Below, piece by piece: positions 5,929 to 61,359 of a DNA stretch of 64,000 nt (positions are counted from its first letter, which is position 1; every line of letters begins with the position of its first letter). The stretch covers positions 416,001 to 480,000 of the forward strand of contig CAWISW010000002.1 of NCBI GenBank assembly GCA_963838925.1. Reading direction: 5' to 3'. The position numbers were made by a program, and so were the translations under genes. Below the pieces are notes generated by a model. The model saw only the letters and a list, made by a program, of their open reading frames with translations, did not search any database and was not told where the DNA came from. This stretch comes from an uncultured Nitrososphaerota archaeon. GTDB lineage: Archaea; Thermoproteota; Nitrososphaeria; Nitrososphaerales; Gagatemarchaeaceae.

Positions 5929-6312
5929 TTGGTAAAGGCAGTAGAGAACCTGAGGAAGAAGAAGCTCACCGGCGGGAAGAGGCGCCCGTTCCGTGGACGC
6001 AAGGCGTGCGAGGCAGACGACTACGCTTTCGAGACGGCGGTGGGCGAGCCTGTCAGCTCTCCCAAGCGCACGAGGGGAGGTAGCTGGAACTTCGGCCTGC
6101 GCTACGCTAACAAGGCCAACGTCTTCGACCCTTCCACAAGCAAGACCGTCAAGACCGACATCCTCAGGGTGACGGCGAACCCGGCCAACAGGGAATACGA
6201 GAGGAGAGGCGTCATCACGCGGGGGGCCACGATCGAGACCAAGCTCGGCAAGGCGAGGGTCACCTCGAAGCCCAGCGACGACGGCGTCGTCAACGGCGTC
6301 CTCATCAAGTAA
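5929..6312 (+). CDS. rps8e: 30S ribosomal protein S8e
   Basis: KKLTGG, RTRGG, NPANREYERRGVITRGATIET, ARVTSKP. Confidence 0.96.
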   Translation: MVKAVENLRKKKLTGGKRRPFRGRKACEADDYAFETAVGEPVSSPKRTRGGSWNFGLRYANKANVFDPSTSKTVKTDILRVTANPANREYERRGVITRGATIETKLGKARVTSKPSDDGVVNGVLIK

Positions 6313-6520
6313 GAAGGGGTTCCGCTAACTCTTCGGCTCAAGCCGTTGTCGAGTCAACTTGCTGGCATCGACTCGGAGGATTAGGGTAGTCGTCCCGTTC
6401 CACGTCACCGCTTCACTTGCCAGCCCTTTTTCCTTCTCAATCGGACTGCAGGAGGTAGTAGCTTGTTGCGAGCGACATTCACCCTGCGTCTCCGACCGGG
6501 AGAGAAGGGAACGGTCGAAC
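6300..6520 (-). ncRNA. Predicted omegaRNA (reRNA) overlapping the tnpB 3' end; boundaries approximate
   Basis: About 70 aa of low-information tail follows RuvC-III, where TnpB omegaRNAs normally overlap; minus-strand hairpin GAGTCGA...TGACTC near 6352-6375. Confidence 0.55.
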
Positions 6521-7654
6521 CTCGACCGCCCCCTTGCGGACAGGTTCATGGCTGCGTGCACGTCCCTGTCTGTCCACCTGCTACACGCCTGACACCACAG
6601 CATCCTCGCATGCGCGACATCGTCCCTTGCGGGACTGCGGAGCTTCTCCCCACACGTCGAGCACCTCGACGAGGAACCAGAGGTGTCAGACCTCGTGAGC
6701 TGGATTGTGGTCACGCCCCTCCACGCGGCCTTGTATTCGAGCATCTTCTTGGCCTTCCAGTGGGGCCACGAGTTGAGCCTGAACCTATACTCCGCTCCCT
6801 TGCGGTTCCCCCTGTGATACAACTTACTGATGCCCGTCAGGTCCTCGATGGCGAGAGCGGCCCCGTCCTTCGCGGCGACGTCGACGACGTAGTTCGTGGC
6901 CGCGTGGATGAGCTGGTCGCCCCTGTGATTCGCCCTCTCCCAGTACTTGCGGGCGAGCCTCCTTCGCATCCTGACGTCGTTCCTCTTGAACGAGCCGACT
7001 ATCTCCCTTGTAGTCTGCCTGACCCTGACCAGCTTTGACATCCCAACTACCGTGACCTTCTCTCTGTCCCCGAACGCTATGTTCTTCTCGTTCCTGTCCA
7101 CGCCGTAGACCCTCCTGATCTGGGCAGGCTCGATGTCCTCGCTGTAGCAGAGTGAGAGCGAATCGCGCGTTAGGGTAAGGCTCCTCACCTCCCTGTCGGC
7201 GAGCTTCTTCAGCGTGTATGGTTCGAGTTGGATGTCGAAATATTTGTCGCGCCTCAGTGGGATGAAGAGCCGCCCCTTCATCGTGATGAAGAACCCGGAG
7301 ATGATGCACACGACGGGTCTCAGAGGTCTTGCATGGCTGACCCTGACGCCTCGCCTCTCGCCCTTTTCACGGCTTCGGACGACGGCACAGGCCCGCGTCA
7401 TCGATGCGAGCTTGTAACACGAAGGCAGTTTGATGTCCTTGAGCGTGCGGTAGAACCCCTTCATCCCTCTGCGGCTCTCGATCTTGTTTTCTTCGGCGTA
7501 CTGGATGGCGTTGTATGTGAGGGTCAAACACTCGGAGAGCAGGTCGCCGAGCTGCAGGCTGGAATAAGATTGAGTGACGGACTTTGTGGCTCGCAACCAT
7601 AAGCTACACTGGAATCGTATAAATGCGCACATGCGCCGAAGAGTTAACAGAGCC
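6318..7654 (-). mobile_element. Non-autonomous TnpB-carrying element with terminal inverted repeats and an 8-bp target-site duplication
   Basis: TIRs at 6318-6337 (GGTTCCGCTAACTCTTCGGC) and 7635-7654 (reverse complement GGCTCTGTTAACTCTTCGGC), 17/20 identical; TAAGAAGG directly repeated at 6310-6317 and 7655-7662; inserted between rps8e and SRP19. Confidence 0.85.
6325..7632 (-). CDS. tnpB: RNA-guided endonuclease TnpB (true start probably slightly downstream of the ORF start)
   Basis: RuvC-I GVDRN, RuvC-II AIEDL, Zn ribbon CSTC...CQAC, RuvC-III DRDVHAAMNL; all three catalytic acids present. Confidence 0.95.
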   Translation of the reverse strand: MCAFIRFQCSLWLRATKSVTQSYSSLQLGDLLSECLTLTYNAIQYAEENKIESRRGMKGFYRTLKDIKLPSCYKLASMTRACAVVRSREKGERRGVRVSHARPLRPVVCIISGFFITMKGRLFIPLRRDKYFDIQLEPYTLKKLADREVRSLTLTRDSLSLCYSEDIEPAQIRRVYGVDRNEKNIAFGDREKVTVVGMSKLVRVRQTTREIVGSFKRNDVRMRRRLARKYWERANHRGDQLIHAATNYVVDVAAKDGAALAIEDLTGISKLYHRGNRKGAEYRFRLNSWPHWKAKKMLEYKAAWRGVTTIQLTRSDTSGSSSRCSTCGEKLRSPARDDVAHARMLWCQACSRWTDRDVHAAMNLSARGRSRFDRSLLSRSETQGECRSQQATTSCSPIEKEKGLASEAVTWNGTTTLILRVDASKLTRQRLEPKS

Positions 7655-7724
7655 TAAGAAGGAAACTACTATAACACTCGCGACACGCGGCGGTCGCAGT
7701 CGAGCACGGGTTGAGCGCCTCTAG

Positions 7725-8024
7725 TTGAAGGAATACGAGCGTTTCGTCGTCTGGCTCGACTATATCGACTCAGAAAGGAAGCGGAGCGAGGGGCGCAGGG
7801 TCCCTCTGAACTCGTGCGTGCGAGCGCCGAACCTGGAGGAGATGGTCCAGGCGTGCAGGAAGCTCAACCTCGACGCCCAGCCCGAAAAGGCATTCTACCC
7901 CCGGGCCTCGCGCCGACAGTCAGGATACGTCTCGATAAAGAAACAGGGGCAAAAACAGCAGGTTATCATGGCAATTGCCCGAGAATTGTCAAGAATCAGG
8001 GGTTCGCAGCCAAAGAAAGTTTAA
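7725..8024 (+). CDS. srp19: Signal recognition particle protein SRP19
   Basis: VVWLDYIDS..RSEGRRVP, APNLEE, YPR. Confidence 0.93.
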   Translation: MKEYERFVVWLDYIDSERKRSEGRRVPLNSCVRAPNLEEMVQACRKLNLDAQPEKAFYPRASRRQSGYVSIKKQGQKQQVIMAIARELSRIRGSQPKKV

Positions 8025-57327: not shown

Positions 57328-60300
57328 TTGTTACAAAGCGTCGCGGAGGGGCAGGATCTCGCCAAGAAGCTCCAAGAGCTGACCACCCCTGTCACCGAGT
57401 TGGACGAAGGCCTCCTCGTCTCCGCCACCTACGACGGCGAGAAACGGAAGGCGGTGCTCAAGTTCTACGACTCCAAGAGGGGGAGGGTGTGGCTGTGGGT
57501 CGACAACACCGGGCACAGGCCGTATTGCTACACCAAGCTCACCCGCGCAGAGCTCGAGGCCGAGGGCGTCAGCGTGGGGAAGAACGGGGTCGCCTCGATC
57601 GACGACGACGACTCGAAGTACGACCTCCTGACCGATTCGAAGATCACAGTAAGAAAGATCACCGCAACCGACCCGCTGGCGATCGGAGGCGCCCCGGGAA
57701 GCCTCAGAGAGCGGATAACATGCTGGGAGGCGGACATCAAGTACTACGAAAACTACCTCTACGACAGGCACCTCAAGGTCGGAACCTACTACAAGATAAC
57801 CCAAGGGGAGCTGGCGCCGGTCGAGAAGGAGGTCGAAGGCGAGGTCCAACGGTCCCTCGACTCCATCCTCACCAAGGCGACGGGAGACGCCGCGTCTCAT
57901 ATCCGTGAGTGGGCAGAGCTGCTCGGGCAGCCGCTCTCTGCGTTCAAGAGGATCGCCTGCGACATCGAGGTCGCCAACGAGGAGAACCGCCTCCCGGACC
58001 CCGAGACCGGGGACAGACCGGTCATCGCCGTCTCGTTCTGCAACGACAAGGAGTCCATCGTCTACATGGTAGACAGGACGGGGGAGGACAAGTCGCTGGA
58101 TGGGGCGTTGACGGCCTACACGCACACCGTATTTCCCGACGAGGCCTCGCTGCTTCGAGCCACCTTCGCAAAGATGATGGAATACCCGTTCCTGATCACC
58201 TTCAACGGGGACGACTTCGACCTGAGGTATCTCAAGAACCGCGCCATGAGAAAGGAGATTGGAATACGGGAGGAAGAGATCCCCATCTCGCTTCAGCGGC
58301 AGGAAGCCTCGCTGAAGCACGGCGTCCACATCGACCTCTACCGGTTCTTCAACAACCGCTCCATCCAGGTCTATGTCTACAACAACAAGTACACCGAGCA
58401 CACGCTCAACGGAATATCCGAGGCGCTCCTGGGGAAGGAGAAGATACCGTTCGAGGGGAACATCAGCGAGCTTCCGCTGCTGAAGCTAGCAGACTACAAC
58501 TTCAACGACTCGGAAATAACCTACGAGCTGACCAGCGCGAACGACTCACTGCTGATGAAAATCCTGCTCGTCATCTCGAGGATCGCCAAGATGCCCATGA
58601 ACGACGTCGCTCGTTTAGGCGTCTCCAACTGGATACGGAGCATGCTCTTCTACGAGCACAGAAAGGACCGCGCCCTCATCCCTCGCACGGACGAGCTCGC
58701 GAGGAAGGGCGGCGCCTCATCCGAGGCGATAATCAAGGGGAAGAAGTACAAGGGAGGCCTCGTAATCGAGCCGAAGCCAGGGGTGTTCTTCGGGGTCTCC
58801 GTGCTGGACTTCGCCAGCCTGTACCCCAGCATCATAAAGGTCCACAACCTCTCCTACGAGACCGTGAACTGCGGTCACGAGGAGTGTAGGTCGAACAAGG
58901 TCCCCGACACCGACCACTGGGTCTGCAGAAAGAGGGATGGGATAGAGAGCCTCGTCATAGGCTCCCTGAGGGACCTCCGGGTCGGACACTACAAGGCGCT
59001 CTCCAAGGACAAGACCATCCCGAAGGAGAGCAGGGACCTCTACGGCACGGTTACCCAGGGACTAAAAGTGATCCTGAACGCTTGCTTCACTGGCGACACG
59101 ATGATAGTCACCCCGACCGGAATAAGGAATATCAAAGACGTGAAGGTCGGAGATCATGTCGTCAACGTTAATCCGGAGACGTTGTCAGTCGAAGTGGACA
59201 AAGTCGTAGAGGTTCAAGCGTTTCCCTTCGTCGGGAACTTGTACCACTTCGAGGACAACAGATTTGTGGACCTAACAGTCACCCCCAACCACCGATTCCT
59301 GACCCAAGATAGACGCAAATCAGCTAACAACGGGACGAAGTTCAGGTCGGCAGAAGAGATTGCAAGACTCGCGAACGTGACAATTCCCAAACTGAAGTCC
59401 GGCGTCCAGTCGGACCATGTTCCAACCCGCATTTCTTTGTTGGAAACCGCGAAGGACATGAACGCAAACGCGTACCTCTATCCGAAGACGGGAGCAAGGT
59501 TGATCGACTGGTTCCGTACGTTACCGCCGGAGCTCCAGCAAAAAATCCGCGCAAACGGCCGTGTGAGGAAACTCGGGATGGAAAGCCCTCGGGTCGAGTC
59601 CAATCGAAGACGACAATCGCACTACGTTCTGCCGTCAAGCGTCGTCAACGAGGACGATATCCATGCTATTGAGAGCGCACACGGGCAGGTCATGCTCGCT
59701 GAGACACGAGGACGCCAAGTGCCTGCGAACTACGATGGCAAAGACTTCGCGACACTCTGCGGATGGTTCGTCGCCGAGGGAACTCCCCATGCGACGTCGC
59801 GTAAAGAATATCCCAACGGCCGTGTTCGCGGGCGAACATCTGGGATAACGATCACTCAAGGGTTTGGCAAGGGGAACCAGATGGGCTTCCATTACAGGGA
59901 AGAAATCCGAATCCTTCTCGCGAGGTTAGGACTGCGAAGCAAAAGGGACGCGTCAGATAACAAGTACTACAAGATCAGCAGCTCAATATTCAATCGATGG
60001 ATGGTCTTGCACTGCTATGACGATGCCGAGCCTGCTCATCATGCGACGTCGAAGAGGATTCCGAACTTCGTCTTCCACTCTGCCGAGACGATGAGAGCCT
60101 TTCTCGACTCTGCCTACAAAGGCGACGGCAACAGGCGAGGGGTGAGGTATTCGACAGTCAGTGTCCGGCTCGCAAGCGAGATGGTTGCCCTTACGGCGAT
60201 GTTGGGGCACAGGGCAAAGATGACCTACGACAAAGACGAAAGAATCTACAGAGTGATCTTCAAGAACGTGAGTTCGAAGTTGACATATTCGGGAGCCGAG

Positions 60301-61359
60301 AAGGACAAGAGGATCACGATGACTCCTTTCGATGGCACGGTCTACTGCGTGACTACTGAAAGGAACCATACGGTCTTCGCCGGAAGGAATGGGAGGTTCG
60401 TCCCGGTGGGTCAATCCTACGGTGTGATGGGCTTCGAGACGTTCGCACTCTACTGCTTGCCGGTAGCCGAAGCGACGGCCGCACTAGGCAGGGACGCGAT
60501 CACACGGACCATCGAAAAGTGCAAGCAGGAGAGCGTCTCTGTCATTTACAGCGATACTGATTCGCTCTTCATCGAAAACCCCGACAAGGACAAGGTCGCC
60601 GACGTTCTAAAGTGGGCGGACAGGGAATTAGGCGTAGAGCTCGAGGTAGACAAGACGTACCGGTATGTCGCTTTCAGCGAGCGCAAGAAGAACTACTTCG
60701 GAGTCCTCCAGGATGGCGCCGCGGACATCAAGGGGCTCACCGGCAAGAAGTCCCAGACGCCAAAGTTCCTGAAGGACGAGTTCTACCTGATGCTCGACAT
60801 CCTAGGCAACGTCTACAGCGCTGACGACTTCGGGCAGGCGAAGTCGAAGATCAAGAAGCTGCTCAACGACATGGTGACCGCTCTCAAGGAGAGGAAGATA
60901 CCGCTCGACGACCTCGCGTTCAACGTCATGATGGGCAAGTCCATAGACGGGTACAAGTCCACGAAGACGACGACAGAGCCCGCCGACAGGAAGGAGGCGA
61001 TGAAGCAGCGCGAAGAGGGTGCGAAGAGGCAGCGAGAGCAGATGTCCCTCCACGAGGGAGTACAGGAGCGGCCGGAGGCGGCCCTCTCGGCCTCGATGAG
61101 CGGGCTGCCTCAGCACGTGAAGGCTGCGATACTCCTGAGGAACTCGAACAGGGAAGTCAAGGCGGGCGAGCTCATCTCCTTCGTGAAGACGAAGGGCAGG
61201 GAAGGGGTGAAGCCCACCATTCAAGCCAAGCCAGAGGACATCGACGTCGACAAGTACATAGAGTACGCGAGCTCTATGTTCGACCAGGTGCTCGGTGCGC
61301 TCGACCTGTCGTTCGACTCGGTCGTGCCGAGGACCAGTCTGGACGCCTTCTGGGCCTAG
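57328..61359 (+). CDS. polB: Family B DNA polymerase (PolB1-type) containing one intein
   Basis: DIEV, TFNGDDFD, DFASLYPSII, KVILNA|SYG, YSDTDS, KKNY.G. Confidence 0.96.
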   Translation: MLQSVAEGQDLAKKLQELTTPVTELDEGLLVSATYDGEKRKAVLKFYDSKRGRVWLWVDNTGHRPYCYTKLTRAELEAEGVSVGKNGVASIDDDDSKYDLLTDSKITVRKITATDPLAIGGAPGSLRERITCWEADIKYYENYLYDRHLKVGTYYKITQGELAPVEKEVEGEVQRSLDSILTKATGDAASHIREWAELLGQPLSAFKRIACDIEVANEENRLPDPETGDRPVIAVSFCNDKESIVYMVDRTGEDKSLDGALTAYTHTVFPDEASLLRATFAKMMEYPFLITFNGDDFDLRYLKNRAMRKEIGIREEEIPISLQRQEASLKHGVHIDLYRFFNNRSIQVYVYNNKYTEHTLNGISEALLGKEKIPFEGNISELPLLKLADYNFNDSEITYELTSANDSLLMKILLVISRIAKMPMNDVARLGVSNWIRSMLFYEHRKDRALIPRTDELARKGGASSEAIIKGKKYKGGLVIEPKPGVFFGVSVLDFASLYPSIIKVHNLSYETVNCGHEECRSNKVPDTDHWVCRKRDGIESLVIGSLRDLRVGHYKALSKDKTIPKESRDLYGTVTQGLKVILNACFTGDTMIVTPTGIRNIKDVKVGDHVVNVNPETLSVEVDKVVEVQAFPFVGNLYHFEDNRFVDLTVTPNHRFLTQDRRKSANNGTKFRSAEEIARLANVTIPKLKSGVQSDHVPTRISLLETAKDMNANAYLYPKTGARLIDWFRTLPPELQQKIRANGRVRKLGMESPRVESNRRRQSHYVLPSSVVNEDDIHAIESAHGQVMLAETRGRQVPANYDGKDFATLCGWFVAEGTPHATSRKEYPNGRVRGRTSGITITQGFGKGNQMGFHYREEIRILLARLGLRSKRDASDNKYYKISSSIFNRWMVLHCYDDAEPAHHATSKRIPNFVFHSAETMRAFLDSAYKGDGNRRGVRYSTVSVRLASEMVALTAMLGHRAKMTYDKDERIYRVIFKNVSSKLTYSGAEKDKRITMTPFDGTVYCVTTERNHTVFAGRNGRFVPVGQSYGVMGFETFALYCLPVAEATAALGRDAITRTIEKCKQESVSVIYSDTDSLFIENPDKDKVADVLKWADRELGVELEVDKTYRYVAFSERKKNYFGVLQDGAADIKGLTGKKSQTPKFLKDEFYLMLDILGNVYSADDFGQAKSKIKKLLNDMVTALKERKIPLDDLAFNVMMGKSIDGYKSTKTTTEPADRKEAMKQREEGAKRQREQMSLHEGVQERPEAALSASMSGLPQHVKAAILLRNSNREVKAGELISFVKTKGREGVKPTIQAKPEDIDVDKYIEYASSMFDQVLGALDLSFDSVVPRTSLDAFWA
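59083..60414 (+). mobile_element. 444-aa intein with a LAGLIDADG homing endonuclease
   Basis: Starts CFTGDT; block B VTPNHRF; LCGWFVAEG and FLDSAYKGDG; block F VYCVTT; ends GRNG...GQ followed by Ser; lower GC. Confidence 0.93.

Follow-up and report, generated by a model that had tools for sequence, protein, structure and literature searches.

A 64,000-nucleotide stretch of DNA from an uncultured Nitrososphaerota archaeon (contig CAWISW010000002.1, positions 416,001 to 480,000; hereafter the window) carries, between the genes rps8e and SRP19, a 1,337-bp element that ends in terminal inverted repeats (TIRs), is flanked by an 8-bp direct repeat and holds a single gene, tnpB. The element spans 6318–7654, between the rps8e stop codon (6310–6312) and the start of SRP19 (7725). 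Taking the whole explanation below as one, we judge it probable that this is an intact member of a thaumarchaeal family of approximately 1.3-kb transposons, whose sole cargo is tnpB with a guide-RNA scaffold. An earlier note, made from the sequence of this DNA, had described the repeats and the TnpB; beyond it, the analysis adds the embedded guide-RNA scaffold, an asymmetry between left and right ends and a fixed distance from a TATA box.

Read directly, the TIRs are complementary at 17 of 20 positions, and a repeat search carries the inverted arms to 23 nt at 83%. Abutting both tips is a perfect direct repeat, TAAGAAGG (8/8), the first copy of which (6310–6317) includes the TAA stop codon of rps8e. 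A degenerate 20-mer written for both arms has exactly 2 sites in the 64-kb window, versus 0.02 expected, and at least 2 sites in none of 100 shuffles. The 8-mer by itself is not rare (3 occurrences in the window versus 0.89 expected, at least 3 in 6 of 100 shuffles), and the weight of the repeat therefore comes from its position against both tips, not from rarity. In a blind scan for TIRs of at least 14/20 plus a flanking repeat of at least 7/8, none of 80 random control places in the window passed, versus 9 of 29 TnpB places, the window included. The flanking repeat was 8/8 in the window, L005, L008, L023, L024 and L025 and 7/8 in L018, L020 and L027 (L numbers denote the loci of relatives described below). 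Sequence read and controls thus confirm the 20-bp TIRs and the 8-bp duplication, with the rps8e stop inside it, that the earlier note had reported. The rarity of the 20-mer, the blind scan with its controls and recurrence in 15 assemblies rule out chance or an assembly artefact.

The element belongs to a family. A word-index protein search returned 336 proteins, the best 120 of them at 58–100% identity, and those that their sources name are assigned to Thaumarchaeota or Nitrososphaerales; an exhaustive search gave 134 representatives at E ≤ 1e-30 and 2,485 at E ≤ 1e-3. Of 53 pattern matches examined in a genome scan, 29 encode relatives; they fall into 28 loci of 18 assemblies, ‘Candidatus Gagatemarchaeum’ among them. 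Plasmid and phage collections had no tblastn match at 1e-10. Both ends could be placed in 21 copies (15 thaumarchaeal assemblies plus the window). This count leaves out L001 and L022 (cut by contig ends), L009 and L010 (right end absent from the locus), L006, L013 and L021 (left boundary not placeable), L002b (left end outside the locus) and L028 (a 40% partial match). Among the 21, the flanking octamers are identical at 8/8 positions in 9, 7/8 in 5, 6/8 in 4 and at most 2/8 in 3. The search for further copies with different duplications, which the earlier note had suggested, thus gave 14 copies at 7/8 or better, and the duplicated 8-mers all differ in sequence between copies. Because the 8-mers vary while the layout is the same throughout the family, the flanking repeats are genuine 8-bp target-site duplications (TSDs) from a staggered cut of double-stranded DNA, and not a fixed target word. 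TIRs together with 8-bp duplications exclude the mechanics of IS200/IS605 and IS607. The inverted repeats of L008 match at 20/20 in the scan, their arms being identical over 24 nt. Copies measure 1,278–1,382 bp, a length that leaves no room for a second gene.

The closest pair of copies, in L010 and L025, is 94% identical at the nucleotide level; its members come from two different assemblies and have different flanks. The window and its relative L002, whose ScpB is 91% identical, carry copies at different sites; the L002 copy follows scpB, the L002 spacer is too diverged from the window for use as an empty site, and tblastn found neither rps8e nor SRP19 among the fetched loci. Copies within one genome are 68–80% identical. 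Two diverged copies in L002 (L002:1-1027 and L002:5944-7252, 80% nucleotide identity, same orientation) flank the smc–scpA–scpB operon, and one of them has its right end 9 nt from the stop codon of scpB. The family holds both intact and decaying members: tnpB is split into at least two open reading frames (ORFs) or stopped early in L016 (after 129 codons), L020, L025, L026 and L027, and in L007 and L019 the ORF reads past the right repeat. Run over all loci, a 12-mer pattern for the repeat tip picked up, beyond the ends already known, only a 79-bp mini-element and a handful of solo matches. The mini-element (L008:2536-2614) is a pair of inverted arms, 21/26 matching, with the TnpB-element tip and no flanking duplication, and may be a deletion derivative or a miniature inverted-repeat transposable element (MITE). 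Solo tips at L009:8064 and L020:7051, with no partner arm and no gene, were set aside as remnants or chance.

The two ends of the element are unequal. Right ends start with GG in 25/25 copies, have G at position 7 in 24/25 and, over the first 8 nt, agree with the right-end consensus at 7.44 positions, while left ends start with GG in 11/21, have G at position 7 in 15/21 and match the right-end consensus at 5.14 of 8. Left tips vary even in copies with perfect duplications, and the L010/L025 lineage has a common non-GG left tip. In 20 of 25 copies the tnpB stop codon lies inside the right repeat, 7 nt from the tip. We propose that the right end combines transposon end, stop codon and RNA helix in one 20-bp sequence, and that these three roles are why it is much better conserved than the left. 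A subfamily (L005, L007, L008, L011, L012, L017, L018, L025 and L026) has an insertion of approximately 24 nt before the right repeat (alignment columns 316–339), which in several copies forms a hairpin and resembles the repeat itself, as an inner second copy; its counterpart is found approximately 30 nt inside the left end. These inner copies may be extra binding sites for the transposase.

Covariation indicates a structured RNA in the 3′ part of tnpB. Aligned over their last 260 nt and a further 20 nt of flank, 25 copies support 8 helices with 43 pairs, 15 of them with double compensatory changes. Paired cells amount to 96.3%, versus 87.0% in column shuffles (0 of 500 reach 96.3%), and pairing drops to 34–52% when partners are slid by 1–3 columns; the slid controls are the stronger, the shuffle being generous for coding, related sequences. 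G–U pairs are fixed or nearly fixed, for example 25/25 at columns 119/139, which places the RNA on the tnpB strand. In the last helix, the stretch just after the long-range helix pairs with positions 7–13 of the right repeat, leaving 6 nt before the flank. Identity at third codon positions, taken over 15 intact ORFs (L002 and L015 were skipped for N, L007 and L016 for length), rises from 0.41–0.54 over residues 1–300 to 0.63–0.72 over residues 301–420, and over residues 381–420 it equals that of positions 1 and 2. Rfam gave only a sub-threshold small nucleolar RNA match (15.6 versus 45 bits). We read the covarying RNA over the last approximately 250 nt of tnpB as an omega-RNA scaffold, with putative expression and a putative guide, because its position, strand and reach match known systems.

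The only gene inside the element lies on the minus strand and encodes a TnpB-like protein (Pfam PF07282, 2.5e-13), with the same domain in 29/29 relatives. Its score of 69.9 bits against the NCBIfam model guided_TnpB is under the cutoff of 100, which, judged by sequence, marks the window protein as a member of a divergent subfamily. As the earlier note had it, TnpB is the only cargo and its D/E/D residues are intact: the RuvC triad D167, E251 and D345 (codons 7096–7098, 6844–6846 and 6562–6564) is invariant in 29 aligned relatives. Numbering here is that of the 423-aa protein from TTG 7596, which matches the database protein and 28 relatives and is the likely start codon in place of the ATG at 7632. 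In a search of the PDB with a profile of 29 relatives, 14/14 matches were of the TnpB/Cas12f type. Foldseek, queried with an AlphaFold model of moderate confidence (mean predicted local distance difference test score, pLDDT, 64.8), returned top matches that were all Cas12f, TnpB or Fanzor (best E 5.8e-13, template-modelling score about 0.5). We take the product to be a TnpB with a zinc-ribbon/TNB domain and a predicted TnpB–Cas12f fold. The model falls below pLDDT 50 over residues 362–423, as would fit a C-terminal tail whose conservation serves the RNA and not a protein fold. The TTG is preceded by a TTTATA box at 21 nt upstream, and a similar A/T box stands at a similar distance in most copies, spacing that suggests a leaderless or near-leaderless tnpB mRNA.

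Copies are inserted at a fixed distance from a TATA-like motif of the host. Aligned on the left boundary, 23/23 copies have a TATA-like heptamer, TATTTAA in the alignment as a whole, at −21 to −15 in the host flank. Its 7 columns hold 5.99 bits over the 23 flanks and 7.67 bits over the 14 copies with duplications of at least 7/8, whereas 2,000 random-register trials reached 2.15 and 3.42 bits, respectively, at most; the flank past the right end holds 1.25 bits at best. At least 6 of the 7 positions are A/T in 19/23 flanks, and A+T farther out is 0.36. A divergent ORF of at least 70 aa is present in 22/23 loci, with a candidate start codon 23–34 nt past the motif in 18/23. Eleven divergent neighbours are ordinary host genes by Pfam: SMC, VIT1, an HTH_10 regulator, aquaporin, CO-dehydrogenase flavoprotein, a TPP enzyme, polyprenyl synthetase, proteasome alpha, ThiI, Usp and SRP19. 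In the window the SRP19 start lies 49 nt beyond the heptamer, the probable TATA box of that divergent gene. A TATA box before a leaderless gene is archaeal geometry, and the spacing here fits it; a promoter profile over 324 crude ORF starts was too noisy to show whether this geometry, with its B recognition element (BRE), is general. The layout is constant, with 6 bp plus the 8-bp duplication between the left end and the motif downstream, the left end always first and tnpB divergent from the host gene, so that insertion, as read from the flanks, is orientation-specific and at the edge of putative promoters. Often no more than 10 nt separate the right end from a convergent host gene's stop (window 6310–6317, L002:1028-1039, L006:7271-7279, L011:7280-7283), and the elements sit in the very short gap that runs from the stop of one gene to the promoter of the next.

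Table 1 Features of the element and its borders in the window
Feature	Position	Strand	Basis
Target-site duplication, right-end side (tnpB orientation); holds the rps8e stop	6310..6317		8/8 identical to 7655–7662
Right-end (RE) terminal inverted repeat; tnpB stop (6325–6327) inside; 3′ arm of the last RNA helix	6318..6337	−	Repeat search, pattern scan, helix model
Conserved structured RNA, tnpB sense strand, read as omega-RNA scaffold in the 3′ part of the ORF	6324..6574	−	Covariation
tnpB coding sequence, 423 aa plus stop, likely TTG start	6325..7596	−	Pfam, NCBIfam, relatives, fold search
Putative TATA-like box of the element, TTTATA	7618..7623	−	Sequence read; function inferred
Left-end (LE) terminal inverted repeat	7635..7654	−	Repeat search, pattern scan
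Target-site duplication, left-end side	7655..7662		Sequence read
Host TATA-like heptamer, −21 to −15 from the left end	7669..7675	+	Position common to 23/23 copies
rps8e, convergent with tnpB	5929..6312	+	Pfam Ribosomal_S8e 9.4e-31
SRP19, divergent from tnpB	7725..8024	+	Pfam

With a single ORF in its 1,337 bp, the element has no transposase of its own, as the earlier note had stated. The Pfam search covered approximately 12 kb around each copy and the 64-kb window: neither the 52 remaining ORFs of the window nor the 246 ORFs of the flanks (129 plus 117, from 28 loci) showed a domain of the DDE, Y1, serine or tyrosine recombinase kind, and an autonomous DDE element with the same ends, which the earlier note had looked to find, is absent from the same ground. 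Three further TnpBs are encoded among the flank ORFs (L008:7338-8531, L009:2297-3628 and L027:4297-5385), within a few kilobases and of other subfamilies; one has a clear OrfB_IS605 domain, and the one in L008 starts 68 nt after the right end. The best-supported reading, we infer, is that the element is mobilised in trans by a DDE-type, TIR-recognising transposase whose gene lies elsewhere in the genome. The ends and the duplication size resemble IS6/IS26, a likeness too broad to name the transposase family. Sequence, DNA bending or the complex of TATA-binding protein (TBP) and TFB would guide insertion to the upstream edge of BRE/TATA core promoters, a placement that would leave the host promoter intact. 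The element's own TATA box would drive the tnpB mRNA, and read-through past the right end would yield an omega RNA whose guide consists of the duplicated 8 bp and adjacent host DNA. TnpB would then cut element-free copies of the locus, and homologous repair would restore the element. Such cut-and-restore activity of TnpB has been shown for IS605-family TnpB.

Several points weigh against trans mobilisation coupled to homing. No partner transposase lies in the searched surroundings, and its existence is an assumption. Variable left tips and a shared non-GG tip are unusual for a DDE enzyme that needs both tips, and the within-genome identities give no sign of recent bursts. The omega RNA is predicted from covariation, with no Rfam match. 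Positions −13 to −9 hold only 0.25–0.60 bits each, so that no conserved target-adjacent motif (TAM) stands next to the duplicated 8 bp and the homing step is without its expected signature; the BRE of the host promoter would explain this weak signal equally well. Survival of harmless insertions in very short spacers could account for part of the TATA spacing, but selection against harmful insertions cannot alone give a single register in 23/23 copies. The relevant part of a 2026 review (PMC13565253) also argues that OMEGA modules (obligate mobile element-guided activity) benefit cut-and-paste DDE elements little.

A narrower proposal makes the partner an IS6/IS26-family transposase and the element an IS6 derivative in which tnpB replaced the transposase gene; we regard it as possible and doubtful. 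The 8-bp duplication agrees with it. Duplications of 8 bp are also made by ISL3, IS1595, IS256 and hAT-like elements. Right ends carry GG and G7, and their first 8 nt are those of the 14-bp bacterial consensus published in PMC6807381, Table 5 of which has archaeal IS6-type elements with GG ends and 8-bp duplications. The earlier note's description of the ends as IS6-like accordingly stands for the right ends; left ends vary at the first two bases (GG in 11/21), the repeat departs from the IS6 consensus from position 10 inward, and, in the part of PMC6807381 used here, GG and G7 also occur in other IS families and the archaeal ‘IS6’ elements are doubted to belong with IS26. Its further proposal that a DDE (IS6-like) lineage captured TnpB is supported in that this TnpB sits in an element with TIRs and TSDs; the transposase is conjecture, as none of the 298 neighbouring ORFs encodes an IS6-type or other DDE enzyme. 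Movement of IS26 forms cointegrates, which would fit poorly with simple, single insertions beside promoters.

A host function would make most copies immobile, with the TnpB–RNA module kept for RNA-guided regulation or defence at or near promoters and the repeats and duplications mere relics. Exapted TnpB regulators are known, the position is consistently beside promoters, the decay of left ends contrasts with the conservation of right end, ORF and RNA, and copies within a genome have diverged to 68–80% identity. We nonetheless find this improbable, in view of the 9 copies with perfect 8/8 duplications, which point to young insertions, of near-identical elements at different sites in different genomes, and of several copies split into two or more ORFs, as for selfish elements. 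The presumed guide, moreover, would come from the side away from the promoter, and the catalytic triad is invariant, whereas recruitment to other, mainly regulatory functions is linked to nuclease inactivation in the part of PMC10691335 used here.

More improbable still is self-mobilisation, in which the TnpB-family RNase-H-fold DED nuclease itself cuts and joins the ends and the TATA-like motif, as a TAM, sets the insertion point, with an 8-bp staggered break 6 bp away. We know of no precedent for strand transfer by the RuvC site of a TnpB or Cas12. The family is TnpB-only at a constant length of approximately 1.3 kb with no other transposase near the 28 loci or in the window, and its tolerance of variable left tips is unlike typical DDE elements. 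The fold search, however, returned guided nucleases only and no transposase, and to cleave a new site under guidance TnpB would require a guide that matches it, something the old flank cannot supply. Known TnpBs have T-rich TAMs, in part as described in PMC13565253, and the A/T motif at its fixed distance is similar to these, but it stands 6 nt from the duplicated 8 bp rather than adjacent, and a TATA box belonging to the divergent host gene accounts for it well. A milder reading of the targeting, which we hold tentatively as a serious possibility, has a transposase of whatever family steered to the upstream edge of TBP/TFB-bound promoters, as Ty3 is by TFIIIB.

That this is an IS200/IS605 (IS1341-type) element of the usual kind, mobilised in trans by a Y1 TnpA, its repeats being hairpin feet plus a repeated target motif, we consider barely credible: the protein is a TnpB, databases label the relatives ‘IS605 OrfB family transposase’ and TnpB-only elements are usually filed there (PMC13565253 and PMC3119063, in the parts used), but TIRs of up to 24 perfect bp (L008), 8-bp repeats that differ in every copy, with duplications in 14/21 at 7/8 or better, and the absence of a Y1 gene among the 298 ORFs contradict it, and with no serine recombinase nearby the earlier note was right to set IS200/IS605 and IS607 aside.

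The rest of the window is thaumarchaeal chromosomal DNA, with smc, scpB, rps8e, SRP19, TFB, aminoacyl-tRNA synthetases and PolB. The PolB ORF (57328–61359, 1,343 aa) has a weak intein-splicing match (27.5 bits, cutoff 35.8) between its exonuclease and polymerase parts, and this family-B DNA polymerase may contain an intein.

TnpB-only elements are among the most common archaeal genes and are routinely filed under IS200/IS605, on the assumption that a Y1 enzyme moves them without duplication. The family described here indicates instead a widespread archaeal TnpB lineage that uses a staggered-cut, inverted-repeat mechanism. It offers a compact natural example in which one 20-bp sequence would serve as transposon end, stop codon and guide-RNA helix, and its fixed distance from the TATA box raises the question of how an archaeal transposon finds the edge of a core promoter. 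For genome editing, it presents a predicted 423-aa nuclease with a guide scaffold readable from covariation. Were self-mobilisation true, a TnpB would for the first time be seen acting as a transposase, and an archaeal mobile element would for the first time be seen to target core promoters. In the literature searched, no account turned up of a TnpB-only element that makes 8-bp duplications, of the present thaumarchaeal family or of insertion close to TATA boxes, supplementary tables, which may classify the clade, lying outside the search.

Among known systems, the nearest prokaryotic relatives in layout are the TnpBs carried by DDE transposons, although the 8-bp duplication here compares with 2–3 bp for ISL2 and IS1031, which are IS5 subgroups. 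Links of TnpB to DDE transposons (IS630, ISL2, IS1031) are already published: TnpB branches ‘DDE-1’ to ‘DDE-6’ are tied to DDE transposases, with IS630 having symmetrical ends and several branches mobilising regularly (Altae-Tran et al. 2023, PNAS, PMC10691335), and the review PMC13565253 names ISL2, IS630 and IS1031 as DDE hosts of TnpB, calls such cases rare and gives TA as the IS630 duplication, each in the part used here. The ‘atypical OMEGA context’ of the earlier note is thus a fair description and not an unprecedented one. Like those branches, the present family places a prokaryotic TnpB between symmetrical, inverted-repeat ends and not between ends of the IS605 or IS607 kind; unlike them, it has no DDE gene inside or beside it (0 of 28 loci, and none in the window), and its hosts are non-ammonia-oxidising Thaumarchaeota. 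The term MITE-like, also from the earlier note, suits the TIRs, the TSD and the missing transposase, while a 1.3-kb coding element falls outside the usual definition by size.

Elements of the IS200/IS605 group have no TIRs, make no duplication and insert 3′ of a fixed 4–5-nt target, according to the parts of PMC4810608 and PMC13565253 consulted. As in IS1341-type elements (for example those of the ISDra2-type OMEGA), a single tnpB of approximately 400 codons is accompanied by a predicted omega-RNA scaffold that overlaps its 3′ end up to the right end, at low copy number and with high diversity per genome. Unlike them, the family has TIRs and 8-bp duplications, lacks subterminal hairpins and a fixed tetranucleotide target, runs its ORF into the terminal repeat and scores below the guided_TnpB cutoff. 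From IS607 it differs by the TIRs and TSD, with no serine recombinase among the 298 ORFs. With IS6/IS26 it shares the 8-bp duplication, the right-end GG and G7 and the first 8 nt of the bacterial consensus, but it measures 1.3 kb with TnpB rather than 0.7–0.9 kb with a DDE gene (H-HTH domain), its inner repeat sequence differs and its left tip is variable.

Yeast Ty3 integrates at TFIIIB-bound start sites of RNA polymerase III, and contact between its integrase and TFIIIB has been demonstrated. The fixed short distance from a promoter landmark of the TBP/TFIIB type and the sparing of the gene are similar, whereas Ty3 is a retroelement and the promoter link here is a positional statistic only. 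With regard to the staggered-cut TIR mechanism, the family is a prokaryotic counterpart of the Fanzor situation in eukaryotes. Like Fanzor1 of eukaryotes and giant viruses, it would pair a TnpB-family nuclease and a guide RNA in a TSD-making transposon, with the 3′ part of the guide RNA overlapping the terminal repeat (in part from PMC13565253, as far as used here). Unlike Fanzor1, it has a prokaryotic host and a small protein of 423 aa, for which Fanzor fold matches rank below Cas12f and TnpB, and, whereas many Fanzor elements also carry their transposase, it travels with tnpB as its only gene.

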